DNA from: an uncultured Gammaproteobacteria bacterium
Lineage (GTDB): Bacteria; Pseudomonadota; Gammaproteobacteria; Steroidobacterales; Woeseiaceae
Direction: 5' to 3'
DNA: 64,000 bases
Assembly: GCA_963752875.1 (NCBI GenBank)
Contig: CAVWAH010000011.1
Location: forward strand, 121,761 to 185,760
The notes below the pieces were generated by a model. That model was given only the letters and a program-made list of their open reading frames with translations. It made no database searches and was not told where the DNA came from. Below are positions 1-38,711 of the stretch, piece after piece. A program made the position numbers and the translations under genes. Within the stretch, counting starts at the first letter, position 1, and each line of letters begins with the position of its first letter.

Positions 1-1982
1 TAGAACCCGTCTTCCACGTGGCAGCCTTCGCAGTTGTTCAGGTGTCCAGGATAGACAAAGTCGAACGTGTGCGCTGTGCCACCAGAAGGGAAGCGGAAGC
101 CACAGGCCTCATACGGTTCCTTCGTGAAGTCGGCTGCGTGCAGGGCATGAATCATGACCTTCATATCGATAGTGTTGTCGTCAGCGGTACCGAGATCAGT
201 AATGCAAGGTTCGCCACGTCGATTGATGTCCGTGGCGTTCGGCGCGTGGCACGTTACGCAGACTTCAATGCTGTCCGTGCGGTTATTGCCATGCATCGAC
301 AGTTGCTGATGACAGTCTTGGCACTTTTCGATCGCTACAGCATTGCGACGAGGTGTCGCCGTGCCGGCGCCGATCTTCGCGTAGGCGACGATGTTGGTCA
401 CAGCGATTCTCTCAATCGAACCACCAATATCGACGGCTGGATGTCCGTCCATCGTGACAGCAAGCGAATCACCGGCATTGGACGGAACCTGGACAGGCGA
501 GGTCACGCGGAACACACCGCCACCAACCGGTTGCGGATTGCCGCCGCTGCACGGTATGGCGCTTATTGAGATGCCAAGTCCGGGGTTAGTGCCAGTACCG
601 TTGTTGTGATAATCCGCCGTATCCCATGCGATTCCTACTGCAAGTCTTGCAGGACCACAATTGGTCCATTCAGGTGCGGTCAGGAGATCCCAAGGAACGC
701 CCGTGACCGGGTTGTTAACGCGGTAGTCGATAACCGGGTTGTCACCTACGTCGGTGTCTGTGATCGAAACGATTTCGAACTCAAACGCTCTTGCCGCGAT
801 CACTTCAGGAATCTCGTGCACAACCTCGACGGCGTATTGTCCGTTGAACGCCGAGGCATTCTCGCCATGGCAAACGACGCAGTCCGTGTCATCGAAGAAA
901 GTGAAGCCGCCGGGGTGCAGTGTTGCCGGATCGTTCTCGGAACCATCCCAGTCGATCCAGTCATGGCAGGCGCCGCAGGAGTCGCGATTCTGAACCGTGC
1001 GCCAGTTGCTGGCTTGCGGCAAGGAGGCGTCGGATTCCTGGTGGCAGGTCAAGCAGTTTCGAACATCCTGCGGGAATATGACGTTCGAGTAGTCATGCGT
1101 GGTGTTGTTATGCCCGACAATGAAGTAACCCTCGTCGAGGTTTATGCCGTAGTGGATCTTGTGGATCATTCGTTTCATGTCTACGGTGCCGCCCCAGGCC
1201 TCGTTGACCGTGTCGCCGTCAATGGAGTACGGGTTGTGGCAGGTCACGCAGTATTCGATATCGAAACGTGCATCCCCATGGAACTCGAGATTGTCGTGGC
1301 AGGCATTACAGGTCGCGTTGTTCGCGATGAGACGTGTATCGATCGGTGCTCCGCCTGCCGGGACAAAGTCGTACGGCGCGTTATTGGCAGGAATCGCAAC
1401 ACCAAGCACGTATACCGTCCGAATCTCGATACCCAGGCGATGTGTCTTGGTGCTGTCAAAGGCCGGACCGGCAGGGTAGGCCGTCAGGTCCTGCGCGAAC
1501 GTGTAGGTGTAGCTGCCGTCGCCGTTGTCCGTGAACGTTCCGGCGGCGCCGGACTCGGTGCTGGCCTGAGCATCAACAATGCCGGCACTGTCGCGAGTGA
1601 TGTAGGACTGCCATTCGCTGGATCCGCCATCCTGACCATTCGTCAACTGCGCCAGCGTGAAGCTGATCGTATTGGCGGGGAGGTCCCTGAGGCCGAAACC
1701 AAGGCCATCAGTCAGGACCATCGTTACAACAGGGGCGCCGCCGCCGGCCGGAACAGCAACGTTCTGGATCTCGACATTGATCTTCTCAGCTGACGTAACC
1801 GGAATCGCAGGACCTGTTGAGGTCCCCGGAGGTCCCGATGGGCCTGGTGTGCCGGGAGTTCCGTTTGAACCCGCAGGACCGGCAGGTCCGGCAGGCCCGG
1901 TTGAGCTATCGCATGCAAAGAGCAGGGCGCTGGCGAGCAGCAGTCCGGCCAATCGTGTATTGCGGCTGAATGATCGTCTCAT
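1..1982 (-). CDS. OmcA/MtrC-family multiheme (decaheme-type) c-type cytochrome lipoprotein; 3' end lies beyond window start
   Basis: Absent from the supplied ORF track because it has no stop in the window. Hand translation of the minus strand from ATG at 1982 gives MRRSFSRNTRLAGLLLASALLFAC/DSS (signal plus lipobox), then 9 G-X-Y triplets and a beta-rich segment. Heme motifs follow as CNACH, CVTCH, CLTCH, CGACH, CVVCH, a second non-heme segment, then CQDCH, CVTCH, CEGCH. Codon phase was checked at 1298 and 20, both in frame with 1982, and no stops were met. The five-heme / spacer domain / five-heme layout is that of OmcA/MtrC. Confidence 0.8.
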   Translation of the reverse strand, partial: MRRSFSRNTRLAGLLLASALLFACDSSTGPAGPAGPAGSNGTPGTPGPSGPPGTSTGPAIPVTSAEKINVEIQNVAVPAGGGAPVVTMVLTDGLGFGLRDLPANTISFTLAQLTNGQDGGSSEWQSYITRDSAGIVDAQASTESGAAGTFTDNGDGSYTYTFAQDLTAYPAGPAFDSTKTHRLGIEIRTVYVLGVAIPANNAPYDFVPAGGAPIDTRLIANNATCNACHDNLEFHGDARFDIEYCVTCHNPYSIDGDTVNEAWGGTVDMKRMIHKIHYGINLDEGYFIVGHNNTTHDYSNVIFPQDVRNCLTCHQESDASLPQASNWRTVQNRDSCGACHDWIDWDGSENDPATLHPGGFTFFDDTDCVVCHGENASAFNGQYAVEVVHEIPEVIAARAFEFEIVSITDTDVGDNPVIDYRVNNPVTGVPWDLLTAPEWTNCGPARLAVGIAWDTADYHNNGTGTNPGLGISISAIPCSGGNPQPVGGGVFRVTSPVQVPSNAGDSLAVTMDGHPAVDIGGSIERIAVTNIVAYAKIGAGTATPRRNAVAIEKCQDCHQQLSMHGNNRTDSIEVCVTCHAPNATDINRRGEPCITDLGTADDNTIDMKVMIHALHAADFTKEPYEACGFRFPSGGTAHTFDFVYPGHLNNCEGCHVEDGF

Positions 1983-2237
1983 GGTCATTCCCCTTAATGT
2001 TATTAGTGCCTGAACTAATGGAGTTGAATGGTGTGGTTCGAAACAGTTTTGCCTGAAACTTTTGTTTCCCGTTCATTGCGCATTCAGGAACGGTGGTTCT
2101 TAATGAACTTGTATGATGATTAGACCCAATCTTGAATCGCGAAATGTACCTATGGATTATCGGAATGTCGCGTGCAGACTTATATTACGATGTATGTACA
2201 ATAATTGCGGGTCCGACCGGGCCAATAGGAGAATGCA

Positions 2238-2846
2238 GTGAAACGCCAATTTATCTTTGTTTTTTCAGTACTTATGCTGGGTCTGCCCGGTATTGCCAGC
2301 GCTGACGTCAAGGCGATGATGCAAGATTGCAACGGCTGCCACGGCGACAACGGGGTCAGCCAATCGAGCGACGTTCCGACGATCGCTGGTCTGGCCGAGT
2401 TTGTCCACATCGATGCGCTCTTTATTTACCAGGATGAGGCACGTCCCTGCGCTGAATCGAAATATCGGCAAGGCGACACCAGTCGCGCAGCAACAACGAT
2501 GTGTGCGGTTGCCGCCGAGCTTGGCGAGGATGATATCGAAGCGCTCGCAGCGGCTTACGCCGCGCTGCCCTATGTCAAAGCCACTCAGGACTTTGATGCC
2601 GCTCTGGCCGCTACTGGCAAGGGCCTGCACGACGACCAATGCGATCGCTGCCATTCCGAAGCCGGCACGCTTGCTGACGACGAAGCCGGGATGCTGGGTG
2701 GCCAGCAGATGGGTTATCTGCGGAACATGTTCGCCCAATACATGGACGGCTCCCGTGAACAGCCGAAGAAAATGAAAGAGAAAATGGACGCGTTGTCCGC
2801 AGACGACGTAGAAGCACTGGTTCACTACTACGGTAGTGTGCAATGA
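2238..2846 (+). CDS. periplasmic diheme class-I cytochrome c (c4-like)
   Basis: GTG start 5 nt after AGGAGA. Signal peptide MKRQFIFVFSVLMLGLPGIASA. Two CXXCH motifs (CNGCH, CDRCH), one in each of two similar halves. Confidence 0.8.
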   Translation: MKRQFIFVFSVLMLGLPGIASADVKAMMQDCNGCHGDNGVSQSSDVPTIAGLAEFVHIDALFIYQDEARPCAESKYRQGDTSRAATTMCAVAAELGEDDIEALAAAYAALPYVKATQDFDAALAATGKGLHDDQCDRCHSEAGTLADDEAGMLGGQQMGYLRNMFAQYMDGSREQPKKMKEKMDALSADDVEALVHYYGSVQ

Positions 2847-3217
2847 GTCAGCCTGATGCCGCCGGTAGTGATACCGGCGGCATGTTTGCCGCGATAGATG
2901 CGAAAGATGGCGCGGCATTCGTTTCCTACCTGACCGAAGATTCCGTATTCCGTTTCGGCTCTGCACTTCCCGTGCAGGGCCGTGATGCTATTCAGGCTGC
3001 CGTTGATGGCTTCTTCGGGACGATCCTGGGCTCTGCGCATGAAATCGCCAATACGTTTCAGTGCGACGATACGGTTATCTGTGAAGGTGAGGTGACCTAT
3101 CACCGGCACGACGACTCAAAGGTCACATTGCCATTCACGGATGTCCTCGAGTACAGCGGTGATCTGATCTCCCACTACAAGATCTACATCGACATCGGTC
3201 CGTTGTACGCCGAGTAG
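2843..3217 (+). CDS. SnoaL/NTF2-like fold protein (function unknown)
   Basis: 124 aa. ATGA overlap with the upstream cytochrome gene. Size and pattern are typical of SnoaL-like/NTF2 family domains. No signal peptide is visible. Confidence 0.55.
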   Translation: MSQPDAAGSDTGGMFAAIDAKDGAAFVSYLTEDSVFRFGSALPVQGRDAIQAAVDGFFGTILGSAHEIANTFQCDDTVICEGEVTYHRHDDSKVTLPFTDVLEYSGDLISHYKIYIDIGPLYAE

Positions 3218-3324
3218 TGCTTCCTGAATAGAACGAGAGACCCCTCTCGGAAATCCCTGATAGCGAACAAGCGCTTATTGGCTTACTAAGACGCAAAGCG
3301 TCAGGTATCAGGGACTCAAAAACA

Positions 3325-6126
3325 ATGACACAGCCCACACGGCTTACTCGTATTTTATTGGCAGCTGCGGCGATCCTGTGGTTCGCGGGAAGCCCGGCTC
3401 TGGCCCAGGAAGATGAAAGGTGCCTGAAGTGTCACGACGATCCTGAGCTGACCAGCTACCGTGGAGACACGGAAATATCGGCCTATGTTACGGCTGCGAT
3501 GATCGCGGGATCTGTGCACTCCGGCGAGGCGTGCGTGGACTGCCACGGTGATCTCGCTGGAAGCAAACGCCGCAGGCACGCCGAAGACCTGGAGCCCGTC
3601 GAATGTGGCGAGTGCCACAGACGCCAGGCCAGAGCGCATGGCAACAGCCTGCACGGTGCCGCAGCTGCCGAGGGCGATCCAATGGCCCCGACCTGTGGCG
3701 ACTGCCACGGCAAGCACGACGTCCTGTCGTCCTCCAGCGCCAACGCGACAACCGCGGTGATGAATATCCCGGTGCTTTGCGGAAACTGCCACCGCGAGGG
3801 CGCTCCGGTATCGCGAACTCATGAGATTTCGCAGGAGAACATCCTCGAGAATTACTCGATGAGTATTCACGGTGAAGGTCTGTTCTCGCAGGGCCTCACC
3901 GTCACGGCTGTTTGCACCTCTTGCCACACCGCACATGACATCCTGCCGCATACCGATCCGAAATCGAGTATCCACGCCGACAATGTCGGCGAGACATGTA
4001 CCGCATGTCACGGCCTGATCGAAAACGTGCACCGCAAGGTCATCGAGGGCCATTTGTGGGCGGAAGATCCGGGCAAGATCCCTGCCTGTGTCGACTGCCA
4101 CGCCCCGCACAAGATTCGTAACGTATTTTACCCGGACGGCCTGGCCGACAAGGATTGCCTGAGCTGCCACAGTCAGCCTGACCTGTCGATGGAACGTGGT
4201 GGCAACACCATCAGCCTGTACGTCGATGAAGAAGCCTACGAAAACTCGAAGCATACAGACACTTCTTGTGCCCAATGCCACACGGACGTGACCGTCGCCG
4301 AAGAACGTGCGTGTTCAACAATACAGACGCAGGTAGATTGCAGTATTTGCCATGCTGAGCAGGTGTTGGAGTACGGCGGCAGTACACACGGAACCCTACA
4401 TGCCGAAGAAGATCCGGATGCGCCTTCCTGTCAGGATTGTCACGCCAAGCACGCGACACTTGGCCAGGATTCGCCGGCGTCGCCGACCTATGCGCTCAAT
4501 GTTCCGACGCTCTGTGGAGACTGTCATCGCGTGGGCGAGCAGGCCGCCGGCCGGATAGAGGCGAAGGTCGGTGACATAGTCGGCAGCTATGAGGATAGCG
4601 TGCACGGCCGCGGATTGATTGAGAGCGGTCTTGTTGTAACAGCGACTTGCGCCGATTGCCACGGGGCACATAACGAACTTCCGCCGGACAGCCCGAACTC
4701 CAACATTAACCCGAATAATATCGCGGGTACCTGTGGTCAATGCCATCATGGCATTGAGGAGCAGTTCCGGGAGAGCGTTCACTGGACGGACGATCCGGTC
4801 GCTGATGAAAACAAACCCACCTGCGAAGACTGTCATTCCTCGCACACCATCATGCGTACCGAACAGATTGGATTCCGCGACCTGATGATGGAACAGTGTG
4901 GCCGTTGTCATGAGGACGAGACGGAGACATTTTTCGATACATTCCACGGCAAGGTTTCGCGCCTGGGTGGTGAGGGCGTCGCCAAGTGTTACGACTGCCA
5001 TGGAACTCACGGCATCGTTGCGCCAACGGATCCCAATTCGACGCTCAGTAGGGATAATGTCGTCGAGACCTGTGGGCAGTGCCACGAGGGCTCTCACCGG
5101 CAATTCGCGGGCTACCTGACACACGCGACGCATCACGATCGCGAAAAATACCCTTGGTTGTTCTGGTCGTTCTGGGGCATGACTGCGTTGCTGGTCGGTA
5201 CACTGTCATTTGCCTTGCTGCACTCGTTCGCCTGGGTGATCCGACTCGTGCTGAATCGTGAAGAGTGGCGAGCACACAAGGCGTTGAGCCAGAGCAGAGA
5301 CCAGAAATTCTATCGCCGTTTCAGCCGACTCCAACGCACCATGCATATCATAATGATGCTCAGCTTCTTCACGCTGGCGTTGACAGGCATGGCGTTGAAA
5401 TTCTCATACATGCCCTGGGCACAGGCGGTTTCCAATTTCCTGGGCGGATTTGACAGCATGGGCTTCCAGCACCGCGTTGGAGCGTTCGGCCTGCTGATTG
5501 TTTTCATTCTGCATACCTACGACATTGTCAGCTATAAGCGAAAGACGAAGCAGACCATGTGGCAGATCATTAACGGACCGGACTCGATTATTTTCAATGG
5601 CCGTGATCTCAAGGAGTTCATCCAGTCGATCAAGTGGTTCTTTGGCATGGGCGAGCGTCCCAACTACGGCCGCTACACCTACTGGGAGAAGTTCGATTAC
5701 TTCGCGGTCGGCTGGGGTATCATCATCATCGGTACGACCGGACTCGTACTCTGGTTCCCCGAAATCTTCACACGTATTGTGCCGGGCTGGGCAGTGAATG
5801 TGGCTACGATCATTCACAGTGACGAAGCGCTGCTTGCAGTGGGTTTCATCTTCTCGATTCACTTCTTTAACACCCACTTCCGGCCCGACAAGTTCCCGAT
5901 GGATCCCGTGATATTTACTGGGCGTTTGTCTGTCGATGAGCTGAAATACGACAAGCCTGGCGAATACGAAGAGCAGGTGGAATCCGGTGAGCTGGAGAAT
6001 AACCTCGTCAGAGCGTTCCCAAGGTTCAAAGACAAGGGCGTGAGGATATTTGGCATGCTGGCGCTGACCTTCGGTCTGGTGGTGCTGGGCCTGATTGTGT
6101 ACTCGATGCTGTTCGGCTACCGTTGA
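3325..6126 (+). CDS. 19-heme c-type cytochrome fused to a C-terminal b-type cytochrome membrane domain (CbcL-like architecture)
   Basis: Signal peptide ...AGSPALAQE. 19 CXXCH motifs counted in residues ~33-590. The C-terminal ~330 aa form multiple TM helices with conserved His (RTMHIIMM, FQHRVGA, FILHTYD, TIIHSDEA, SIHFFNTHF), as in FdnI/HydC-type diheme cytochrome b. Confidence 0.85.
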   Translation: MTQPTRLTRILLAAAAILWFAGSPALAQEDERCLKCHDDPELTSYRGDTEISAYVTAAMIAGSVHSGEACVDCHGDLAGSKRRRHAEDLEPVECGECHRRQARAHGNSLHGAAAAEGDPMAPTCGDCHGKHDVLSSSSANATTAVMNIPVLCGNCHREGAPVSRTHEISQENILENYSMSIHGEGLFSQGLTVTAVCTSCHTAHDILPHTDPKSSIHADNVGETCTACHGLIENVHRKVIEGHLWAEDPGKIPACVDCHAPHKIRNVFYPDGLADKDCLSCHSQPDLSMERGGNTISLYVDEEAYENSKHTDTSCAQCHTDVTVAEERACSTIQTQVDCSICHAEQVLEYGGSTHGTLHAEEDPDAPSCQDCHAKHATLGQDSPASPTYALNVPTLCGDCHRVGEQAAGRIEAKVGDIVGSYEDSVHGRGLIESGLVVTATCADCHGAHNELPPDSPNSNINPNNIAGTCGQCHHGIEEQFRESVHWTDDPVADENKPTCEDCHSSHTIMRTEQIGFRDLMMEQCGRCHEDETETFFDTFHGKVSRLGGEGVAKCYDCHGTHGIVAPTDPNSTLSRDNVVETCGQCHEGSHRQFAGYLTHATHHDREKYPWLFWSFWGMTALLVGTLSFALLHSFAWVIRLVLNREEWRAHKALSQSRDQKFYRRFSRLQRTMHIIMMLSFFTLALTGMALKFSYMPWAQAVSNFLGGFDSMGFQHRVGAFGLLIVFILHTYDIVSYKRKTKQTMWQIINGPDSIIFNGRDLKEFIQSIKWFFGMGERPNYGRYTYWEKFDYFAVGWGIIIIGTTGLVLWFPEIFTRIVPGWAVNVATIIHSDEALLAVGFIFSIHFFNTHFRPDKFPMDPVIFTGRLSVDELKYDKPGEYEEQVESGELENNLVRAFPRFKDKGVRIFGMLALTFGLVVLGLIVYSMLFGYR

Positions 6127-6183
6127 TCGCTGGTACCGGGTAGAGTTGGGTTTGTTGGATAGCGACCCCGGCTGCATGCCCAT

Positions 6184-7566
6184 GTGGCCAGGGTCTTTCA
6201 TCTTTGGCGTATTGGGGCAGGGCTTATGTTGGATTTAACCGGTCACTGGGTCGGCGCTACCGCCCTCCTGATATTTGTCCTGGCTTACCTGCTGGTCATC
6301 GTCGAGGAATTCACGCACCTCAGAAAGTCCAAGCCGGTAATCCTTGCTGCCGGCCTGATCTGGGCAATCATCGCCTATCAGTACGCTACTGCGTCCATTT
6401 CACATGCGACGGAGGAGGCCGTCCGACATTTCCTGACGGAGTTTGCCGAGCTGTTCCTCTTCCTGCTCACAGCGATGACCTACGTCAATGCGATGAGTGA
6501 GCGTCGCGTGTTCGCGGCGCTCCGGTCGTGGCTCGTAAACCATGAATTCAGCTACCGACAACTATTCTGGATTACCGGCATCCTCGCCTTTTTCCTCTCG
6601 CCCATAATTGACAACCTCACGACAGCACTGGTGATGTGTGCGGTATTGCTCGCAGTGGGAAAAGAGAGCCCGAAATTCGTCAGTATTGGTTGTGTCAATA
6701 TCGTCGTCGCGGCCAACGCAGGCGGAGCATTCAGTCCATTTGGGGACATCACGACATTGATGGTCTGGCAAAAGGGGACATTGGAATTCCAGACGTTCTT
6801 CGCACTGTTTGTTCCGTCAGTCGTCAACTACCTGGTGCCGGCAGTCGTCATGTCTTTGGCGGTGCCTAAAGCAAGCCCACAGGCGGAGACTGAGGTTGTC
6901 GAAATGCAGCGCGGTGCCAAGAGAATGATGTTTCTCTTCGGATGCACGATTGCAACGGCGGTCAGTTTTCACAACTTCCTTCACCTCCCACCATTTCTCG
7001 GCATGATGACGGGACTCGCCTATCTTCAGATCTTCGGCTACTACCTGCGAATCACACACACTGCTGAAATGGAAAATGGACCGATTCGTGGCCGACATGG
7101 AGAGATCACTGCGTTTGACAGCTTTCGAGAAATCGCGCGCGCCGAATGGGACACGCTGTTGTTCTTCTTCGGTGTGATCATGTGCGTTGGTGGCCTTGGG
7201 TTCATCGGCTACCTGGATCAATTGTCCGTTTACGCCTATTCGGAACTCGGCGCGACGGTTGCCAACATACTGGTTGGTATCGCATCCGCGATCGTGGACA
7301 ACATTCCGGTCATGGTAGCGGTACTGCAGATGTACCCCGAAATGGATGTTGCGCAATGGTTGCTGGTTACGCTAACAGCTGGCGTCGGCGGCAGCCTGCT
7401 TTCTATCGGTTCAGCCGCAGGTGTTGCCCTGATGGGTCAGGCGCGAGGTCAATACACCTTCTTTTCTCATCTGAAGTGGACGCCGGCGATTGCCGCCGGC
7501 TTCGCACTGAGTATCTGGGTGCATTTCCTGGTCAACAGCCATTACATCGGGGTGGCCCCGACGTAG
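6184..7566 (+). CDS. nhaD: Na+/H+ antiporter, NhaD/ArsB-type permease
   Basis: 460-aa polytopic membrane protein with the NhaD family pattern. The track start is GTG 6184; an in-frame ATG at 6226 (MLDLTGHW...) is an equally plausible start. Confidence 0.7.
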   Translation: MARVFHLWRIGAGLMLDLTGHWVGATALLIFVLAYLLVIVEEFTHLRKSKPVILAAGLIWAIIAYQYATASISHATEEAVRHFLTEFAELFLFLLTAMTYVNAMSERRVFAALRSWLVNHEFSYRQLFWITGILAFFLSPIIDNLTTALVMCAVLLAVGKESPKFVSIGCVNIVVAANAGGAFSPFGDITTLMVWQKGTLEFQTFFALFVPSVVNYLVPAVVMSLAVPKASPQAETEVVEMQRGAKRMMFLFGCTIATAVSFHNFLHLPPFLGMMTGLAYLQIFGYYLRITHTAEMENGPIRGRHGEITAFDSFREIARAEWDTLLFFFGVIMCVGGLGFIGYLDQLSVYAYSELGATVANILVGIASAIVDNIPVMVAVLQMYPEMDVAQWLLVTLTAGVGGSLLSIGSAAGVALMGQARGQYTFFSHLKWTPAIAAGFALSIWVHFLVNSHYIGVAPT

Positions 7567-7568
7567 GC

Positions 7569-7588
7569 CAGGCACCTTGCTGTGCCTG
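7569..7588. terminator. 7-bp stem hairpin between convergent genes
   Basis: caggcac (7569-7575), loop cttgct, gtgcctg (7582-7588). It fills the 24-nt gap between the nhaD stop and the stop of the minus-strand cytochrome gene. There is no room for a U-tract. Confidence 0.35.
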
Positions 7589-7590
7589 AC

Positions 7591-11148: not shown

Positions 11149-11897
11149 ATCAAATGCTTGCGAACCCCTCAAGGCGTCAGCTTATCAATGAGGTAGTTAG
11201 TGGTGGCACCGGACTGGTGTTGGCGCTATTTATGTGGGGGCACGTTGTGCTGGTCGGTTCGATCTTGACCGGCGAACGCGGCTTCGACTGGATGGCGACG
11301 ATGCTCGAGGACTATTTCATCGCCCAGCCAACGGTGATAGCGATTTTCTCTCTGTTCCTGGTGCATGCGGTATTTGCGGCGCGCAAGATTCCGTCGCAGC
11401 TTCAAGAACGCAAGCGTCTGGCCGAACTCGCTAAGGGACTCAGAAATTCGGGTCGGGAAAAAGTGGCAACGCGTACACCGTATTCGCCGTTCCGTCCGCA
11501 CCTCGAGTCGATGCTCTGGATCTGGCAGGTACGCACAGGCATGGTCATGCTGGTGCTGGGTAGCTTCCACCTTATTCTGCTCGCTCTCGATGTGTTCACC
11601 CCGCTGTTTGGTGACATGGCGGGCATCGAGTCGTCTACATCGATGGCACGTGTTGCCGCAGGTTTGTGGCTGCCGTACGCGATCCTGTTGCTGTGTGTCG
11701 AATTTCACGCCAGCGTCGGCTTGTATCGGCTCGCGATCAAATGGGGCGCCGATCTGTGGCTGTCGCGCAAGGTGATGCACCTGATCGAACAGATAATTTT
11801 CTGGACGATTCTGGTGATCGGTTCAATTACGTTGTTTGTACTCGCAGGCTGGATGGATCCACCGCTGGCCTTCCTGCTCGAAGGGGCCGGGTCATGA
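11145..11897 (+). CDS. frdC: fumarate reductase/succinate dehydrogenase diheme cytochrome b subunit, type B (5-TM, FrdC-like)
   Basis: 250 aa with 5 predicted TM helices and four TM histidines (MWGHVV, LVHAVF, SFHLIL, EFHASV), as in Wolinella/Geobacter-type FrdC. GTG 11145 overlaps the upstream TGA; the alternative start is ATG 11154. Confidence 0.75.
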   Translation: MNQMLANPSRRQLINEVVSGGTGLVLALFMWGHVVLVGSILTGERGFDWMATMLEDYFIAQPTVIAIFSLFLVHAVFAARKIPSQLQERKRLAELAKGLRNSGREKVATRTPYSPFRPHLESMLWIWQVRTGMVMLVLGSFHLILLALDVFTPLFGDMAGIESSTSMARVAAGLWLPYAILLLCVEFHASVGLYRLAIKWGADLWLSRKVMHLIEQIIFWTILVIGSITLFVLAGWMDPPLAFLLEGAGS

Positions 11898-13840
11898 TGC
11901 AAAAGCTCCTGACAACGGATGTACTGGTTATCGGCGGCGGGCTAGCCGGCGAACGTTGCGCGATAGAGGCGGCAGCAGCTGGCCAGGAAGCGTTGATCCT
12001 CTCACTGGTACCGCCGCGCCGCAGCCACAGTTGTGCAGCACAGGGCGGCATGCAGGCGGCGTTGGCGAATTGCGTCAAGGCAGAGGGCGATAGTCCGGAT
12101 GTCCATTTCCTCGACACGGTGCGTGGCTCCGACTGGGGTGCGGATCAGGAAGTCGCCAATATTTTCGCCGACAACGCGCCGGTCGCAGTGCGCGAACTCG
12201 CACATTTCGGTGTGCCATGGTCGCGCGTAAAGGGAGGCAAGAATCACTACTTCATCAAGGGCGAAGAGGTTGAGATAGACGAAGCGCTCGAGAACGATGG
12301 TCTGATTGGCCAGCGCGACTTCGGCGGCACTGCCAAGTGGCGAGCCTGTTACGCGGCGGCTGGTACCGGACACGCAGCGCTTTACGCAATCGACAGCGAA
12401 GTCGTGCGCCTTGGGATTACGGTACGAGACCGTACCGAAGCGGTTGCTCTGATTCACGATGGCAGTCGATGCGTGGGGGCGGTCGTCAGGGACCTTCGCA
12501 ATGGCTCACAGTTCGCTGTGATGGCCAAAGCGACCGTTATCGCTACAGGCGGATACGGTCGCATTTATGGCCAGTACACGAGTAATGCGACGATCAACGA
12601 AGGCACGGGAGCATCGATTGCTCTTGACACCGGCATCGTGCCGCTTGGCAACATGGAGGCCGTGCAATTTCACCCGACAACCCTGTCACCGAGCGGAATA
12701 CTGGTGACAGAAGGTTGCCGAGGTGACGGAGGTTATCTGCTCGACAAGAACATGAACCGATTCATGGTCGAAGCGGAACCCGAGAAACAGGAGCTGGCCA
12801 GCCGTGACGTTGTGTCGCGACACATGGTGCAATGTATGCGCGACGGCAACGGCGTCGAGTCACCGTATGGTCCGCATCTCTGGCTCGATATCCGGCATTT
12901 GGGTGAGGAACACCTGCGGACCAAGTTGCTGGAGGTTTGGGATATCTGTCGTGACTTTGTTGGACGCAACCCTGCCGAAGAACTGATACCGGTGCGACCG
13001 ACCCAACACTATTCAATGGGTGGAATACGCGTCAACAAGGATGGCCAGGCATACGGACTTGCGGGCCTGTTTGCCGTCGGCGAAGCGGCCTGCTGGGACA
13101 TGCACGGCTTCAATCGTCTTGGCGGCAACAGCCTGGCCGAAACGCTGGTTTCCGGACGCATCGTCGGTCGTCGTGTCGCGGAATATGCCACCGGGACGAC
13201 ACTGCGAGCCGACACAGGTGCCGCTTTTGATGCGCTCGAAGCTGCCGCAAATCGATCCCGGGATTGGCTGGTACGTACTGGCAATGGCCCCAGCGTCTAC
13301 GAGATTCGCGACAGAATGGGCGAGATCATGATGCACAAGGTCGGGATCTTCAGGAACGGTGACGAACTTGCCGAGGCTGTCACGGAACTCGGGCAGTTGC
13401 TGGACGACTGTGATAGTGCAGTGTTGCGCTGCAAAGACCCGGGTATGAACCCGGAGTTGTCCTTTGCGCTACGTCTCAAAGGCATGCTGCGCCTCGCGAT
13501 GACCGTCGCCAAAGGCGCGCAAGCCCGCACAGAAAGTCGCGGCGCACATTTCCGGATGGATTTCCCGCTTCGCAATGACCGTGAATGGCTCAATCGAACA
13601 CTGGTCCGTTGGGGAATCGATGATAGCGCACCCTCATTCAGTTACGAGCCCACTGGCATCATCGACCTGCCACCCGGTCATCGCGGATACGGTAGTGACG
13701 AGCGCATCGAGATGACGACATCGCTCGATGATTACAACGAAAATGTACTGGCTGAGCAGATTCGACATGGCCGCCTCGATAGTGTTGAGGAGATGGGCAG
13801 TCGATTGCGGCGCGGCGCAAGGAATGCAGAGGCAGGCTAG
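11894..13840 (+). CDS. frdA: fumarate reductase/succinate dehydrogenase flavoprotein subunit
   Basis: ATG 11894 overlaps the frdC TGA (ATGA). N-terminal DVLVIGGGLAGERCA dinucleotide fold, RSHSCAAQGG (covalent-FAD His) and QFHPT. The track ORF starting at 11666 is an upstream in-frame extension overlapping frdC. Confidence 0.9.
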   Translation: MMQKLLTTDVLVIGGGLAGERCAIEAAAAGQEALILSLVPPRRSHSCAAQGGMQAALANCVKAEGDSPDVHFLDTVRGSDWGADQEVANIFADNAPVAVRELAHFGVPWSRVKGGKNHYFIKGEEVEIDEALENDGLIGQRDFGGTAKWRACYAAAGTGHAALYAIDSEVVRLGITVRDRTEAVALIHDGSRCVGAVVRDLRNGSQFAVMAKATVIATGGYGRIYGQYTSNATINEGTGASIALDTGIVPLGNMEAVQFHPTTLSPSGILVTEGCRGDGGYLLDKNMNRFMVEAEPEKQELASRDVVSRHMVQCMRDGNGVESPYGPHLWLDIRHLGEEHLRTKLLEVWDICRDFVGRNPAEELIPVRPTQHYSMGGIRVNKDGQAYGLAGLFAVGEAACWDMHGFNRLGGNSLAETLVSGRIVGRRVAEYATGTTLRADTGAAFDALEAAANRSRDWLVRTGNGPSVYEIRDRMGEIMMHKVGIFRNGDELAEAVTELGQLLDDCDSAVLRCKDPGMNPELSFALRLKGMLRLAMTVAKGAQARTESRGAHFRMDFPLRNDREWLNRTLVRWGIDDSAPSFSYEPTGIIDLPPGHRGYGSDERIEMTTSLDDYNENVLAEQIRHGRLDSVEEMGSRLRRGARNAEAG

Positions 13841-13846
13841 GGAACT

Positions 13847-14590
13847 ATGAGCGAAACTACACGCCGACTACGGTTCGAAATCTTCCGGTATAACCCGGAG
13901 GACGAGAACAGTACGCCGCATACGGATGTCTTCGAGCTTGACGAGACGCCGTTCATGACGCTGTACATTGCACTCAACCAGATTCGTGAACGATTCGACC
14001 CGGGTTTGCAGTTTGATTTTGCATGTCGCTCGGCAATCTGCGGTTCCTGCGCGATGATGGTTAACGGGCGACCTGCGCTGGCGTGCCGGACGCTGACAAG
14101 CGACCTTACGGAAAAGATTCACCTCTATCCGCTGCCGGTCTTCAAGCTGATCGGTGATCTGTCCGTGGATACCGGGACCTGGTTCCGCGCGATGGTCGAA
14201 CGCACCGAAGCCTGGATACACGAGCGCTTGCCATTTGATCCCGATGCAACAGAAGACCGCATGAGCGACGACGTAGCCGCGGCAATTTACGAAAATGATC
14301 GTTGCATCGAGTGTGGCTGTTGTGTTGCGGCGTGTGGTGCAGCCAATATCGATTCTGAGTTCCTCGCCGGAGCCGGGTTAAATAGAATTGCCCGTTTCAT
14401 GCTCGATCCGCGCGATCAACGGACCGATGGTGACTGGTTCGAGGTTCTGGCTGGTGACGAGGGCGTCTTTGCCTGCATTGGCATGATGGCCTGTGAGGAT
14501 GTCTGTCCGAAGGAACTGCCGCTTCTCGACGTGTACGGATACCTGCGCCGAAAGTCATTCTCCGCGGGACTCTCAAGTAACAAGAAATAG
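13847..14590 (+). CDS. frdB: fumarate reductase/succinate dehydrogenase iron-sulfur subunit
   Basis: 2Fe-2S region CRSAICGSCAMMVNG...C and Cys clusters CIECGCCVAAC and CIGMMACEDVCP. Confidence 0.9.
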   Translation: MSETTRRLRFEIFRYNPEDENSTPHTDVFELDETPFMTLYIALNQIRERFDPGLQFDFACRSAICGSCAMMVNGRPALACRTLTSDLTEKIHLYPLPVFKLIGDLSVDTGTWFRAMVERTEAWIHERLPFDPDATEDRMSDDVAAAIYENDRCIECGCCVAACGAANIDSEFLAGAGLNRIARFMLDPRDQRTDGDWFEVLAGDEGVFACIGMMACEDVCPKELPLLDVYGYLRRKSFSAGLSSNKK

Positions 14591-14787
14591 ACTGAGCGCA
14601 AAGCTCACTTGGTTCTTGCCGTAGGTATCTTCGGCTAGTACGTATTTATGTCTATACGTCGCTACGGTTGTATTGAACGAGGTGAATCTTCGGCATAGTT
14701 CAGGCAACAACCAATATCAATAAAAAGTTCGCTGCTGAAGCCTAAATTAACCTTTCGAGTGTCAAGGGGGCACAGGGAGAGGTAACC

Positions 14788-15258
14788 ATGAAGCGGCACG
14801 TCCTGCACCCGTTATGGGTAGCAATCGGACTAGTGGGGCTGATATTCCTGGCCAGGAGTTTTCTGGTCCCGGACGACTTTGGCGTTCACGGCGACAGCTT
14901 CACCTACAATTATCATCGCCTCAGCAATATTCAGGAATGGCAAGATTTTCCCGTGAAGTACCGTGGGAAGGATTCCTGCACTGAATGCCACAAAGCCAAT
15001 GTCAGGAAGAACAGGCGATCTCCCCACAAACGCATCGAATGTGAGAGCTGCCATGGGCCGTCAGGTAACCATCCTGACGACGTGGAATACCTGCCGCTTA
15101 ACAAAGAACGAGCCCTCTGCCTGCGATGTCACGCATCTCTTGAGTATCCCGATGCGGCCAGATCCGACTTGCCTGCGATCCATGATCGGCGCCACAAACG
15201 CAAGCGCGAATGCGTTGAATGCCACAATCCACATGACCCAAGGGAGGATGTCGAATGA
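14788..15258 (+). CDS. membrane-anchored tetraheme cytochrome c
   Basis: GGAGAGG ribosome-binding site. N-terminal TM helix. Motifs CTECH, CESCH, CLRCH and CVECH in 156 aa. Confidence 0.8.
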   Translation: MKRHVLHPLWVAIGLVGLIFLARSFLVPDDFGVHGDSFTYNYHRLSNIQEWQDFPVKYRGKDSCTECHKANVRKNRRSPHKRIECESCHGPSGNHPDDVEYLPLNKERALCLRCHASLEYPDAARSDLPAIHDRRHKRKRECVECHNPHDPREDVE

Positions 15259-16025
15259 CTTGTTCTCGCAGGGATTTCCTGAAAGATGCCGTCGGTGGAA
15301 CGGTTGCATCCGTATTACCGCTGAGCGCATTTACATTCCTGACTACAGCCGAAGCCAAGGCGGCGATAGCTGACGCAAAAGTCAGGTGGGCGTTCCTTGT
15401 CGACACGAACAAGTGTGTCGGTTGCGGATTGTGCGTCGACGCATGTAAGAATGAAAATGAGATTCCGTATGACGCACCTGTCACCCGGACCTGGGTCGAA
15501 CGCTATGTAGTAACCAAAGACGGTCGAACGCTTGCAGATTCTCCCAAGGGTGGGAGAGACGGATTCACAACCGGCAATATTCGTGAGGAGGAGATTGATC
15601 CCGATAATGTCGCAAAGGCATTTTTCGTTCCAAAGCTCTGCAATCAATGCGACAACCCGGCCTGTGTGCAGGTGTGCCCTGTTGGCGCGACGTACCAGAC
15701 GCATGACGGGGTGGTCCTCGTGGACAGGGAATGGTGCATCGGCTGCGGCTACTGCATCATGGCTTGCCCCTATGGCGTCCGCTTCTTCCACCCGGAGCAC
15801 AGAGTCGCCGACAAATGCAATTTCTGCTACCACCGGATTACCAAGGGTCTTCAGCCTGCCTGTGTGCAGAGCTGCGCATTCGGCGCCCGCAGGTTGGCGA
15901 ACCTGAAGGACCCCGATGACCCGGTAACAAAGATCATAACGACCGAAAGAGTGGCGGTCCTCAAGGACGAGTACGGGACAAAGCCGCATGTCTTCTATCT
16001 TGGTCTCGATGCCAGCGTGAGGTGA
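15255..16025 (+). CDS. Tat-exported 4Fe-4S ferredoxin-type subunit (NrfC/PsrB/SirC-like)
   Basis: ATGA overlap with the upstream gene. Twin-arginine signal CSRRDFLK. Cys clusters CVGCGLCVDAC, CNQCDNPACVQVCP, CIGCGYCIMACP and CNFC...C. Confidence 0.85.
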   Translation: MTCSRRDFLKDAVGGTVASVLPLSAFTFLTTAEAKAAIADAKVRWAFLVDTNKCVGCGLCVDACKNENEIPYDAPVTRTWVERYVVTKDGRTLADSPKGGRDGFTTGNIREEEIDPDNVAKAFFVPKLCNQCDNPACVQVCPVGATYQTHDGVVLVDREWCIGCGYCIMACPYGVRFFHPEHRVADKCNFCYHRITKGLQPACVQSCAFGARRLANLKDPDDPVTKIITTERVAVLKDEYGTKPHVFYLGLDASVR

Positions 16026-16029
16026 TTTC

Positions 16030-17283
16030 ATGACCCCGGACATCATCGTGCACGGAGCTGAGTGGACAGTAAAAGAGCTGTTCGTCTACCCCAACGAATT
16101 CATCTACTGGAGCATCCAGATCGTCATGTATCCATACATGACAGGCCTGGTGGCCGGCGCGTTCGTACTGTCCTCTCTGTACCACGTATTCGGCCAGAAG
16201 GACCTCAAGGAAATAGCCCAGTTCTCACTGGTGTTTTCCCTGGCTCTGTTGCCAGTGGCTGCGCTGCCATTGTTGCTGCACCTGCAACAGCCGACGCGAG
16301 CCATGGAGCCGTTGTTGACGCCGCACTTCACGTCGGCAATCGCCGCATTCGGTATTGTTTTCACTGTGTACGGATTGATCGTCGTCAGCGAGATCTGGTT
16401 CGTCTATCGCGAGTACTTTGTGTATCAGCTTGAGACCCTGAAGGGCGTACCCGGGTTCTGGAACGCACAAAGGCGCATCGCCTACAGGGCACTGACTTTC
16501 GGCGCGCGTGATGTGAGCGCGGATGCGCTCAAGGTCGACCACAAGGCTGCGAAAATACTTGCGGGCATCGGCATTCCCGTGGCCTGTTTCCTGCATGGGT
16601 ACGCCGGGTTCATCTTCGGTTCTGTCAAGGCCAACGCGTTGTGGATGTCGCCACTGATGCCGGTCATTTTCATCATGTCAGCTATTGTTTCCGGCATCGC
16701 CCTTTGCATGCTGACCTATATCATAATAATGGAGTGGCAGGCATTTCGTCAGCGTCGGAAGAACGGGGCCGAGGCAGCCGGAGACATCAAAGGCGCCGAG
16801 AAGGAAGTAGTCGGCAGGGCCACTCGCTACCTGCTGGGATTCCTGATCGCTGCTATTAGCCTCGAACTTCTGGACCTGATCTTCCGCGGCTACACGGCAA
16901 TGAAGTCCTGGGATATTCTGCGCTCGGTAATGTACGGCAAGGATTTCATCAATATCTTCGTCCTTCAGTACGGACTCGGAAACCTTGTCCCGTTCGTATT
17001 GTTGATTCTGCCGCGCCTGACGATCAAACGCACTGTACTGGCGCTGCTGCTCGTACTGTTCGGCGTGTTTATGATGCGCTGGAACGTGGTTATCGGCGGC
17101 CAGGCATTTTCATTGTCGTTCTCGGGCTACATGCATTACCACATTCCCATCATCCCGCACAGCGTTGAAACCTTTAAGGAAGGGCTGTTCGGCGCATTGA
17201 CCGTGATGGCTACTCCGTTCGTGTTGTTCTGGTTTATCAACAAGTTCGTGCCGTCTCTGCGGAGGGATATCGGAGCCGCCTAG
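16030..17283 (+). CDS. NrfD/PsrC-family integral membrane quinone-interacting subunit
   Basis: 417-aa polytopic membrane protein directly after the FeS subunit, showing the NrfD family pattern. Confidence 0.85.
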   Translation: MTPDIIVHGAEWTVKELFVYPNEFIYWSIQIVMYPYMTGLVAGAFVLSSLYHVFGQKDLKEIAQFSLVFSLALLPVAALPLLLHLQQPTRAMEPLLTPHFTSAIAAFGIVFTVYGLIVVSEIWFVYREYFVYQLETLKGVPGFWNAQRRIAYRALTFGARDVSADALKVDHKAAKILAGIGIPVACFLHGYAGFIFGSVKANALWMSPLMPVIFIMSAIVSGIALCMLTYIIIMEWQAFRQRRKNGAEAAGDIKGAEKEVVGRATRYLLGFLIAAISLELLDLIFRGYTAMKSWDILRSVMYGKDFINIFVLQYGLGNLVPFVLLILPRLTIKRTVLALLLVLFGVFMMRWNVVIGGQAFSLSFSGYMHYHIPIIPHSVETFKEGLFGALTVMATPFVLFWFINKFVPSLRRDIGAA

Positions 17284-18971
17284 TGACTTCTACTCTCGCC
17301 GATCTTGAAAACCGGCTGGCGGCCGTTGAGCGACGCCTCGCCTCGCTTGAGGGCGGTGCTGATGAAGTGCGCCAGATCGAACGAGAGGCTGCGGCGCCCA
17401 GACTTGATGGTGGCTTCGCTACCAATGCGTCGACGCATGTCGGGCGGGTCCTCCTTATCTTTGGCGGAGCCTACTTGCTGCGCGCCATCACCGACTATGA
17501 GTTTGTTCCCAAGGCTGTTGGTCTGCTCATGGGTGCGATTTACGCTGTCTTCTGGTTGTTCATGTCATATCGCAAGGGCCGGTTGGAGTCGCAGCGCACC
17601 GATGCAGCGTTTTTTGGTGGAACATCCATCGTATTGACGCTTCCGCTACTCCACGAGGCGACGACGAAATTCGAATTGCTGTCCGGTGTGCAAGGCATCG
17701 TCCTGCTCCTGATCTACTGCACGCTGGTGATGATGGTAGCGATCGTACACAACCAGAAAGTCCTGGCCTGGATGGTCACGGCAGGTGGAATCGCTACAGC
17801 TACGGCATCTCTGGTTGCGTCGCACAATGCGGTATCTGTAGCGGCCTTCCTGCTCGTTCTTGGCGTCGGGTCACTTCTGGCTGAATACAGGCGGGAGTGG
17901 CTGGGGTTGCGCTGGCTCGGCGCAGCCGGTGCAAATCTTGGAGTACTAGCCATTGTTGCTCTGTCAAACAGCGATCGCTGGTCGATAGATCCCCGGCTGC
18001 CGTTCATTTTTGCCGTCGTATTGTTGGCGATATACCTGTCCAGCTTTACGTATCACTCGCACATTCGCGATCAGCTGTTAGGCTTTTTCGAGACCCTACA
18101 AGCTTTGATTGCTGTTGGAATCGTGATCGGTGCTGCGAGTATGGCGGTCCAGGGCGGTCAGCTGGGAATCGCAACCGCCGGCATGCTGAGCCTGGTGCTC
18201 GGCATCGGCGGCTATGCCCTGGCAACCACCAGGGGCACCCGTGAGCTGCGCTATCGCAACTTCTTCTATTACTCGACACTCGGCCTGATATTCGTCGTGG
18301 CAGGTACCGGATTGCTCCTGCCTCTGGTTTGGGCTGCCGTTGTCTGGGCTGCTATGGCTGTCATGATGGCCTGGTTTAGTGGTCGGAGTGGCTGGGTCAG
18401 CCTGAGTCTGCAATGTACGTTTCTCCTGTTGGCTGCGGGAATTGGCTGCGGATTGCTGGCCACTGGACTGAAGGCGCTGGCCGGCGACCCGGCCAATGGC
18501 TGGCCGGTGTTCATGTACTCGCACGTTGCCGTTGCCGTGGCGACTGTTGCATGCCTGTTCATTCCTGTGGCACAAAAATCGGAGCGCTGGGGTGTCCTCG
18601 CCGGACTGCCGCAGCTTGTTGTGCTGGCGTTGTCCGTCTGGGAGGTCGGTGGCCTGATCGTAGTCTACGGCTCGATCCTGCTTGCCGGCGCGGATGGGAC
18701 CGAGATAGACCGCGCCGTGCTTGCCGCGCTGCGCACGGCAGTATTGTCAACCGCGTCGGTGACGCTGGCCCTGTCGAGTCAGCACTGGCGCTGGCCGGAG
18801 GCGCGTTGGCTCGTTTACCCGGTACTGGTATTGGTGGGGATTAAGCTGTTCCTCGAGGACTTTCCCAACGGCCAGCCGGCCAGCCTGTTCGTGGCACTGG
18901 CATTCGTCGGGAGCGCATTGCTACTCGTTGCGCCAATATTGAAGCGTGACGATAATCCGCCCGGCACCTAG
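17283..18971 (+). CDS. large polytopic membrane protein with N-terminal coiled-coil (DUF2339-like)
   Basis: The GTG start shares one nucleotide with the nrfD-like TAG (TAGTG). N-terminus LADLENRLAAVERRLASLEG, followed by about 15 hydrophobic helices. The family assignment is from memory of the DUF2339 pattern. Confidence 0.55.
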   Translation: MTSTLADLENRLAAVERRLASLEGGADEVRQIEREAAAPRLDGGFATNASTHVGRVLLIFGGAYLLRAITDYEFVPKAVGLLMGAIYAVFWLFMSYRKGRLESQRTDAAFFGGTSIVLTLPLLHEATTKFELLSGVQGIVLLLIYCTLVMMVAIVHNQKVLAWMVTAGGIATATASLVASHNAVSVAAFLLVLGVGSLLAEYRREWLGLRWLGAAGANLGVLAIVALSNSDRWSIDPRLPFIFAVVLLAIYLSSFTYHSHIRDQLLGFFETLQALIAVGIVIGAASMAVQGGQLGIATAGMLSLVLGIGGYALATTRGTRELRYRNFFYYSTLGLIFVVAGTGLLLPLVWAAVVWAAMAVMMAWFSGRSGWVSLSLQCTFLLLAAGIGCGLLATGLKALAGDPANGWPVFMYSHVAVAVATVACLFIPVAQKSERWGVLAGLPQLVVLALSVWEVGGLIVVYGSILLAGADGTEIDRAVLAALRTAVLSTASVTLALSSQHWRWPEARWLVYPVLVLVGIKLFLEDFPNGQPASLFVALAFVGSALLLVAPILKRDDNPPGT

Positions 18972-21830: not shown

Positions 21831-21831
21831 G

Positions 21832-26390: not shown

Positions 26391-26405
26391 AGGTTTGGTC
26401 GCAGA

Positions 26406-38698: not shown

Positions 38699-38711
38699 GA
38701 CCGGCAGACTA

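Follow-up and report, generated by a model that had tools for sequence, protein, structure and literature searches.

Woeseiaceae share an operon-like gene block that combines ImcH-like and CbcL-type cytochromes with PdsA-like, Mtr, and FrdCAB components

In Geobacter, the inner-membrane proteins ImcH, CbcL, and CbcBA handle electron acceptors of successively lower potential (PMC12307469), and FrdCAB is the succinate dehydrogenase that closes the tricarboxylic acid (TCA) cycle during Fe(III) respiration (PMC9494351). In Aeromonas and Vibrio, PdsA and NetBCD/CymA feed the MtrCAB conduit (PMC8805035), and pdsA lies beside mtrCAB both in these genera and in most group-3 Gammaproteobacteria (Baker et al. 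2022, PMC8805035). A survey of 2018 found no mtrAB or mtoAB next to imcH (Zhong & Shi, PMC6295460). Here we describe a stretch of 64,000 nucleotides from an uncultured gammaproteobacterium of the family Woeseiaceae (contig CAVWAH010000011.1; hereafter the window), whose first 18,971 nucleotides form a respiratory island rich in c-type cytochrome genes. Using a tblastn map of 90-odd related loci, which are denoted by L-numbers, we find that the genes pdsA-(snoaL)-[c19b]-c11b-imcH-frdCAB are one conserved operon-like block in Woeseiaceae. In this notation, square brackets mark variable members, and c19b and c11b are multihaem c-type cytochromes fused to b-type membrane domains (c::b fusions). 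The genes of the island are listed below by position in the window and strand.

3-1988 (-), mtrC, OmcA/MtrC-family, predicted outer-surface decahaem lipoprotein with 8 CxxCH visible, open at the window start
2238-2846 (+), pdsA-like dihaem cytochrome c, 202 aa, 2 CxxCH, signal peptide
2843-3217 (+), SnoaL_2 (NTF2-like) gene, Pfam PF12680, E 1.5e-14
3325-6126 (+), c19b, 933 aa, 19 CxxCH and a C-terminal Ni_hydr_CYTB domain
6184-7566 (+), nhaD Na+/H+ antiporter, NF038006, 595 bits against a cut-off of 80
7591-9462 (-), c11b, 623 aa, 11 CxxCH and Ni_hydr_CYTB
9742-11148 (+), imcH-like gene (NapC/NirT-type), three N-terminal transmembrane (TM) helices, 5 CxxCH and 1 CX3CH
11145-11897 (+), frdC; 11894-13840 (+), frdA; 13847-14590 (+), frdB; predicted type-B dihaem-b FrdCAB
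14788-15258 (+), tetrahaem cytochrome c (c4), 4 CxxCH, TM-anchored
15255-16025 (+), NrfC-like, Tat-exported 4x[4Fe-4S] protein
16030-17283 (+), NrfD-like, quinone-site-type membrane subunit
17283-18971 (+), DUF2339, PF10101, 49.6 bits, polytopic membrane protein with ~16 TM helices

A preliminary description of this DNA had counted 8, 2, 19, 11, 6, and 4 haem-binding motifs in six cytochrome genes, and translation of the open reading frames (ORFs) in 1-18971 yields the same census of 49 CxxCH and one CX3CH. Pfam and NCBIfam also recover the components it had named, namely the two b-domain fusions, the three-TM NapC/NirT-like protein, the tetrahaem/NrfC/NrfD set, FrdCAB, and a menA-like/Na+-NQR neighbourhood, and they add the SnoaL_2, NhaD, and DUF2339 membrane proteins that it had left unnamed. 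Throughout, the membership of proteins in families rests on architecture, profiles, and published tables. Counted over stop-to-stop ORFs of at least 100 aa, CxxCH motifs number 50 in 14,351 aa in the first 19 kb and 3 in 31,608 aa in the rest of the window, an excess of more than 30-fold that is far beyond chance. Most genes are translationally coupled, as had been claimed: of the ten junctions between same-strand genes, seven are overlaps or gaps of no more than 6 nt. They are pdsA/snoaL (the snoaL start overlapping the pdsA stop), imcH/frdC, frdC/frdA, and c4/nrfC at -4 nt, nrfD/DUF2339 at -1 nt, nrfC/nrfD at +4 nt, and frdA/frdB at +6 nt.

Related Woeseiaceae genomes share this block, apart from the variable members, again in square brackets. 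On the left of the shared block, mtrBAC runs leftward and pdsA, (snoaL), [c19b], [nhaD], c11b, and imcH follow in the opposite direction; on the right, [DUF2339], frdCAB, and [... c4 nrfC nrfD DUF2339] meet CBS, apbE, and nqrFEDCBA on the minus strand. This CBS/apbE/nqr flank is common to L002, L009, L012, L067, L089, L091, and L092. In L009, L011, and L012, pdsA-snoaL-c19b-c11b-imcH-frdCAB all run in one direction with short gaps, and the window lineage departs from that order by an inserted nhaD and an inversion of c11b. The nhaD gene, absent in L009, L011, and L012, lies between two c::b genes in L002, L004, L007, L008, L010, L015, L067, L089, and L093. The imcH/frdC overlap recurs as well, measuring 4 nt in the window, L089, L092, and L093/94 and one shared base in L002. 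In L090, a Crp/Fnr-family regulator gene is found just upstream of pdsA-snoaL-c::b-imcH-frdCAB. The co-directional order, the short gaps, and the imcH/frdC overlap together argue that the fumarate/succinate enzyme is almost certainly expressed together with the shuttle and the quinol-oxidase candidates. The SnoaL_2 protein, which has no signal peptide and looks cytoplasmic, is kept in most Woeseiaceae loci and is absent in L002 and L010. Elsewhere, in the unrelated lineage of L088, a SnoaL_3 gene (7341-7844) stands between a small cytochrome c gene and c::b fusion genes.

Parts of the block recur far outside the family. Acidobacteriota, Gemmatimonadota, Bacteroidota, and Zixibacteria are among the groups with full-length homologues of c19b at 50-64% identity. 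Where a locus from another lineage (in nearly every case another phylum) covers 5 kb or more on each side of c19b, which holds for 45 loci, a second c::b fusion gene is present in 31 and an ImcH-like gene in 13. The c::b/c::b/ImcH triad of a Thermoanaerobaculia metagenome-assembled genome (MAG) abuts genes for an MtrA-like decahaem protein and an outer-membrane barrel, and in Gemmatimonadota and an Eiseniibacteriota MAG, homologues of c4-nrfC-nrfD are located directly downstream of c19b-type genes. A c19b gene with a second c::b fusion, often accompanied by an ImcH-like gene, is a module that recurs in several phyla. Because the c::b/c::b/ImcH set recurs in this manner, the two toolkits, Shewanella-type and Geobacter-type, that the preliminary description saw together are not a chance juxtaposition.

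The preliminary description had likened the two fusions to CbcL, and Pfam matches, architecture, TM histidines, and the modelled fold of the membrane domain all fit a membership of both in the CbcL/MtrH/MtoC family. This family is defined by an N-terminal c domain with 3-23 CxxCH, a multi-TM b-type domain, and a length of 416-1034 aa (Zhong & Shi 2018); c19b has 19 motifs, 933 aa, and ~6 TM helices, and c11b has 11 motifs, 623 aa, and ~5 TM helices. On PF01292, c11b scores 41.6 bits and c19b 30.1 bits, exactly at the 30.1 cut-off. An internal 8-haem repeat in c19b (residues 40-282 versus 285-529, 38% identity, E 3.5e-61), together with the alignment of c11b to c19b residues 278-867 (31.5% identity, E 1.7e-90), makes c19b a c11b-like protein with one extra copy of the 8-haem unit. 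The haem layout of c19b is that of MAF27600.1, a Gemmatimonadetes protein of 951 aa and 19 haems that Zhong & Shi (2018 Table S2; PMC6295460) count among the CbcL/MtoC homologues, with an offset of ~20 residues (18-20). Six histidines of the c19b TM domain (H633, H674, H716, H730, H831, and H846) do not vary between phyla and are shared with c11b. The AlphaFold2 model of c19b has a mean pLDDT of 57, and since the haem domain is mostly below 50, we used only the membrane domain, where values are ~70-77. For this domain, the sole significant match in the PDB is FdnI, the dihaem-b subunit of formate dehydrogenase-N (1kqf_C, target-normalised TM-score 0.72 in Foldseek), and c19b is accordingly modelled with an FdnI-like, dihaem-b type membrane fold. 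Sequence searches of solved structures with c11b returned only a weak match to 3oue_A, a "cytochrome c family protein".

The c19b gene can also lie apart from the block. In L005/L014 (CALZJH010000003.1, 369-392 kb), it is found alone beside an AraC-type regulator gene, and the same contig carries the pdsA-c11b-imcH-frdCAB-c4-nrfCD block at 85-106 kb (L091). Since it is solitary ~265 kb from the block in this Woeseiaceae genome, c19b moves independently of the rest. We had considered L005/L014 as a case of Woeseiaceae with c19b but without the rest of the set, and the block ~265 kb away on the same contig rules this out.

The three-TM NapC/NirT-like protein, which had been compared with ImcH, matches published ImcH homologues motif for motif. 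Its ORF opens at a TTG (9730), and the likely start is the ATG at 9742, giving 468 aa. In this numbering, the CX3CH motif lies at 133 and the CxxCH motifs at 158, 207, 308, 425, and 445. The TM helices lie at ~13-31, 56-74, and 106-124, and the CX3CH is CGLACH, residue 137 in 472-aa numbering. The ImcH homologue of Anaeromyxobacter is likewise 468 aa long, with motifs at 134, 158, 207, 309, 425, and 445 (Table S3, PMC6295460), and G. sulfurreducens ImcH (GSU3259) has motifs at 132, 156, 205, 311, 428, and 448 and a seventh at 486 (PMC6295460). The window protein has six motifs rather than the seven of GSU3259; its chain stops at 468, short of the seventh, like that of the six-motif subgroup. 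With three TM helices, one CX3CH, and five CxxCH, it has each feature of the published definition of ImcH, namely three N-terminal TM helices, an adjacent atypical CX3CH, and then 5-9 CX2CH (Zhong & Shi 2018, PMC6295460). Its NapC/NirT domain scores 41 bits on PF03264 against a cut-off of 24.1. Sequence searches of solved structures gave no match for either the ImcH-like or the NrfD-like protein.

Downstream of imcH, the type-B FrdCAB that had been proposed proves to be of the Wolinella type. FrdA scores 938 bits on NF006383 (cut-off 663) and FrdB 366 bits on NF010071 (cut-off 264), and FrdC, at 114 bits, is below the cut-off of its own model (187). In an alignment with the Wolinella subunit (2bs2_C), the four haem-b histidines are conserved in FrdC, with H33, H74, H142, and H188 corresponding to H44, H93, H143, and H182, and E186 aligns with E180, the glutamate of the E-pathway; the anchor has five TM helices. 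By these residues, FrdCAB is predicted to be a dihaem-b, menaquinone-type fumarate reductase/succinate dehydrogenase.

At the other end of the block, the dihaem protein scores 182 bits on the NCBIfam model for PdsA (NF049874), below the strict cut-off of 330, and for this reason we call it PdsA-like and not PdsA. The alignment is full length (residues 10-202 against positions 7-198 of 198, covering 192 of the 198 profile positions), and the 202-aa protein has an N-terminal signal and CxxCH motifs at residues 31 and 135. The gene adjoins mtrC here, and so it does in those Woeseiaceae loci that span the junction. NCBIfam annotation of the island shows no CymA, FccA, or CctA. The PdsA-like identity of the dihaem gene makes the Mtr part one of the Aeromonas/Vibrio kind and not of the Shewanella kind.

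The first gene had been assigned to the OmcA/MtrC family, and despite its missing C-terminus the product scores 401 bits on TIGR03507 against a cut-off of 209. Pfam finds the domains Mtrc-MtrF_II-IV (PF22113, E 2.5e-37) and OmcA-like_N, and among solved structures MtrF comes closest (3pmq, E 1e-35). Because its alignment with the 757-aa, 10-haem MtrC of L002 (75% identical) stops at residue 661, having begun at residue 1, ~96 C-terminal residues and two haem motifs should lie beyond the window start. The N-terminus has a lipobox-like ...LLFAC DSS sequence. Directly after the lipobox cysteine comes a collagen-like G-X-Y run (GPAGPAGPAGSNGTPGTPGPSGPPG..., window 1865-1957 (-), residues ~11-41), which is also kept in the 75%-identical MtrC of L002 and which may be an extended tether linking the haem domains to the lipid anchor.

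Whether a porin-cytochrome partner exists had been left to the sequence beyond position 1. In L002 and L003, whose island proteins are 75-94% identical to those of the window, mtrB-mtrA-mtrC lie on the minus strand directly left of pdsA. The MtrA of L002 has 318 aa and 10 haems (TIGR03508, 280 bits), and its MtrB has 705 aa (TIGR03509, 389 bits). With these two proteins as tblastn queries, mtrA and mtrB are found in the same place in L008, L009, L010, and L067. In L089, mtrA is beside mtrC at the edge of the locus, and in L090, where the MtrC gene is duplicated, mtrB and a tblastn match to mtrA are separated from mtrC by two short ORFs. The lack of such a partner, which the preliminary description would have taken as a refutation, is therefore not seen in the lineage: in close relatives with island proteins 75-90% identical, mtrA and mtrB lie directly past mtrC, at the point where the window stops, so that the partner is encoded where synteny would place it.

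The divergent spacer between mtrC and pdsA contains a conserved block, which we list here as a feature.

2132-2160 (+), TTGAAT-N17-GATTAT, sigma70-like element reading towards pdsA, conserved block of the mtrC/pdsA divergent spacer

In an alignment of the window with 10 related Woeseiaceae contigs, this is the best-conserved block of the spacer. Downstream of it, at 2192-2202, is a ATGTACAAT block, and both are kept in most of the related Woeseiaceae contigs aligned. By sequence, the two blocks are a candidate promoter or operator of the pdsA operon. A simple promoter scan did not call the TTGAAT-N17-GATTAT element, and generic promoter and terminator scans gave results at or below shuffle expectation.

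The tetrahaem/NrfC/NrfD genes behave differently from the rest of the block. NrfC-like and NrfD-like proteins match PF13247 and PF03916, respectively, with TtrB, DsrO, and NrfC as the top NCBIfam matches, and the best solved-structure match of the FeS subunit, which has the Tat motif SRRDFLK, is PsrB (2vpw_B, E 8.5e-47). No gene for a catalytic Mo subunit adjoins them. An identity with NetBCD was considered and rejected at the family level, since the NetB model NF049875 has no match to the tetrahaem protein at E below 0.01; the same model has a weak match with the MtrA of L002. For that reason c4-NrfCD is best described as an analogue of NetBCD and not as a demonstrated member. The unit occupies the same site, between frd and nqr, in the window, L010, L091, L092, and L093/94, and is missing there in L002, L009, L067, and L089; in L093, four unrelated genes separate frdB from c4-NrfCD. 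NrfD is much more conserved than the cytochromes, with at least 83% identity in the best 120 matches. A DUF2339 gene follows nrfD in L091 (11254-12939), L092, L093, and L094, and its start overlaps the nrfD stop in L091, L093/94, and the window, whereas a short gap separates the two genes in L092. A DUF2339 gene is instead found between imcH and frdC in L012 (16574-18244). The NrfCD-DUF2339 unit is thus a variable, separate add-on to the block, and the recurrence of DUF2339 in a respiratory block offers a lead to the function of an uncharacterised family.

Taken together, menaquinol-fed extracellular respiration of Fe and Mn with several quinol-oxidase "gears" is the most likely function of the locus and, in our estimation, a probable one. 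It also seems reasonably likely that the island is the inner-membrane and periplasmic half of an extracellular electron transfer (EET) respiration whose outer-membrane half, mtrA and mtrB, lies just past the window start. From the family and architecture of each part, the mtrAB genes of relatives, and the operon-level linkage, we infer the quinone species, partner contacts, tuning of potential, and direction of electron flow in the following scheme. The menaquinone pool would be reduced by Na+-NQR, through oxidation of NADH, and by FrdCAB, which would oxidise succinate as a menaquinone-dependent dehydrogenase. Menaquinol would then be oxidised by alternative modules, namely the ImcH-like protein, c11b, c19b, and, where present, c4-NrfCD. 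From these modules, electrons could take the PdsA-like periplasmic shuttle, or run straight through the long haem domains, to reach MtrA within MtrB, and then travel from MtrA/MtrB through the surface decahaem MtrC to Mn(IV) and Fe(III) oxides. If Geobacter is a guide, quinol oxidases in parallel may serve as gears for acceptors that differ in redox potential and energy yield, and FrdCAB could become a terminal reductase when fumarate is present. This scheme is consistent with benthic Woeseiaceae MAGs that carry mtrCAB, interpreted in 2025 as Fe reduction (PMC12175321).

Several observations weigh against this scheme. The window stops inside mtrC, so that the mtrAB of the window genome itself is not in view. 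Boxes of the FNR/CRP type (TTGAT-N4-ATCAA with up to two mismatches) are not above chance, with 28 matches against 22 ± 4 expected, and none is in the divergent promoter regions. Given that c19b is solitary in L005/L014, it is not obligatorily tied to Mtr. Finally, CbcL-family MtoC also occurs in Fe(II) oxidisers (PMC6295460), and metaproteomics of sulfide chimneys has been taken to argue for electron uptake by Woeseiaceae (PMC6850669). The last two points bear on the main rival, which we hold to be unlikely: that current runs inward, with MtrCAB accepting electrons from Fe(II) or from reduced solids such as metal sulfides and passing them by way of PdsA to the c::b fusions as MtoC-like quinone reductases, with the quinol spent on FrdCAB (fumarate), on oxygen or nitrate reductases, or on reverse flow for CO2 fixation. 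The CbcL/MtrH/MtoC homologues of Fe(II) oxidisers are thought to be bidirectional (PMC6295460), Meier et al. inferred that on inactive sulfide chimneys Woeseiaceae and their relatives take up electrons (PMC6850669), and Baker et al. suggested that Frd beside Mtr may support EET both ways (PMC8805035); a fumarate reductase that shares an operon with a quinone-coupled cytochrome would fit an uptake-to-fumarate route. However, ImcH homologues are known only from Fe(III) reducers (PMC6295460), and PdsA has been characterised in reduction pathways (PMC8805035). The described Mto clusters of oxidisers consist of mtoA, mtoB, mtoC, and mtoD without an MtrC-type surface cytochrome, whereas MtrC is present here. 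No Cyc2, RuBisCO, or sulfur-oxidation genes are found among the annotated ORFs, which take in all but ~18 of the 28 large ORFs of 29.8-64 kb.

The locus might also not be one conduit but a set of separate menaquinone-dependent anaerobic branches with only chromosomal position and regulation in common with Mtr: fumarate respiration, an NrfCD module with an unidentified periplasmic reductase, and c::b fusions for soluble or humic acceptors. This weaker rival appears more improbable still. In its favour, c4-NrfCD-DUF2339 occupies this site in just ~4 of the 10 Woeseiaceae arrangements, lies beyond four unrelated genes in L093, and includes an NrfD whose conservation is far above that of the cytochromes; c19b, for its part, can be solitary, and most c19b loci of other phyla have no Mtr-like gene within 10 kb (MtrA-like in 5 of 72). 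Against this, the super-operon from pdsA to frdB and the imcH/frdC overlap argue for co-expression with the Mtr shuttle, and Pfam finds no gene for a periplasmic catalytic reductase (Nrf, Psr, Ttr, Sir, or Dms) in the island. The placement of c4-NrfCD directly downstream of c19b-type genes in Gemmatimonadota and the Eiseniibacteriota MAG also counts against separate branches. Menaquinol-fed mineral respiration can be taken one step further, to a proposal that we offer tentatively and regard as a long shot: Woeseiaceae would carry a conserved, hard-wired, multi-gear electron-exchange system in which an ImcH-like and two CbcL-like quinol oxidases, passed on as a single cross-phylum module, are co-transcribed with a menaquinone-type succinate/fumarate enzyme and PdsA and in which the membrane-anchored 19-haem protein is a wire long enough to span much of the periplasm to MtrA. 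If this were true, Woeseiaceae would make up a major and so far overlooked guild on the sea floor that respires Mn and Fe minerals or exchanges electrons with minerals in both directions.

To the right of the island, the window continues with the following genes, identified by Pfam and NCBIfam.

18968-27386 (-), flank with a CBS-pair protein, apbE, nqrFEDCBA, and a menA-like gene
20586-26390 (-), nqrFEDCBA (Na+-NQR)
26406-27386 (-), menA-like prenyltransferase, TIGR00751, 128 bits against a cut-off of 102

The marine gammaproteobacterial background that had been suggested agrees with the nearest homologues of c19b, the ImcH-like protein, and NrfD, which come from Woeseiaceae MAGs of marine sediments. 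A horizontally acquired foreign island was considered and is not called, as G+C is 0.55-0.58 in the island and 0.53-0.60 elsewhere, within the range of the window, and there are no mobile-element genes. A sodium-bioenergetics theme runs through the window, with NhaD at 6184-7566, Na+-NQR and apbE at 20586-26390, and OadA/OadB, a Na+-translocating oxaloacetate decarboxylase, at 36914-39842. The segment 39857-50000, which begins with a family-2 glycosyltransferase gene and has a G+C of 0.53-0.54 against ~0.58, looks like a surface-polysaccharide cluster. The ORF at 33731-35023 (+) joins a bacterial SH3 domain to an endosialidase-chaperone domain (Peptidase_S74), a pairing that is unusual outside phage tail-fibre proteins. 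The ORF at 62561-63943 (-) has a sequence signature that may fit anaerobic haem supply.

All proteins of the island belong to known families, and the pairings mtr with pdsA and NrfCD, mtr with a CbcL homologue, mtr with frd, and ImcH with CbcL and Mtr are published. The claim of an undescribed Shewanella/Geobacter hybrid was therefore overstated, the Mtr part being of the Aeromonas/Vibrio kind and several of the pairings already known; what stands of it is the linkage of imcH to mtr and to frdCAB. In the literature searched, we found no description of imcH within an mtr/pdsA-linked operon, of imcH-frdCAB coupling, or of the cross-phylum c::b/c::b/ImcH module. What is new is the conserved Woeseiaceae block, the cross-phylum c::b module, and the variable NrfCD-DUF2339 add-on, and not a new mechanism. 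An ImcH-type gene that is operon-linked to both PdsA/Mtr and type-B FrdCAB contrasts with the survey of 2018, and the c::b/c::b/ImcH set recurs from Gammaproteobacteria to Acidobacteriota and Gemmatimonadota.

Woeseiaceae are cosmopolitan and in marine sediments rank with the most abundant bacteria, which gives the locus ecological relevance. Little is known of their energy metabolism under anaerobic conditions. The published record for the family consists of mtrCAB in benthic MAGs only, to which our analysis adds what probably feeds the conduit. The block provides concrete candidates for coupling the quinone pool to minerals across the redox gradient in uncultured sediment bacteria.

Each of the closest described systems shares part of this composition. 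Desulfuromonas acetexigens also combines Geobacter-type inner-membrane cytochromes with a complete Mtr conduit in one organism; ImcH and CbcL are adjacent there and occur with CymA and a full Mtr, and both systems are expressed on electrodes. It belongs to another phylum, and the text consulted does not report the modules as one cluster with pdsA and frd. Group 4 betaproteobacterial mtrCAB loci (Baker et al. 2022, PMC8805035) likewise have a fumarate reductase operon with mtrCAB, although theirs is named frdABCD and the window has a three-subunit FrdCAB, predicted to be dihaem-b, with frdC coupled to an imcH-like gene. The clusters of Rhodoferax ferrireducens (cymA, mtrH, mtrCAB) and the Mto clusters (mtoABCD) resemble the window in placing a CbcL-family fusion in a porin-cytochrome cluster. 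They have one fusion where the window has two paralogous ones, and CymA or MtoD where it has an ImcH-like protein and PdsA.

The Mtr loci of Aeromonas hydrophila and Vibrio natriegens, also from gammaproteobacterial hosts, have mtrC(AB) beside a PdsA-type gene and an NrfCD-type quinol module with a c-type subunit in the same region, as does the window. Unlike those loci, the window has a PdsA-like protein scoring 182 against 330, a tetrahaem subunit without a NetB match, no CymA, and three extra inner-membrane cytochromes together with FrdCAB between pdsA and NrfCD. With Geobacter sulfurreducens, compared by architecture and published tables, the window shares an ImcH-type protein (three TM helices, CX3CH, and NapC/NirT), CbcL-type fusions of a c domain to an FdnI/HydC-type b domain, type-B FrdCAB, and the presence of several such modules in parallel in one organism. 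Its ImcH-like protein has 6 haem motifs rather than 7 and its fusions 11 and 19 haems rather than 9, and its genes are clustered and tied to Mtr/PdsA instead of to the Ppc/Omc/Ext conduits.

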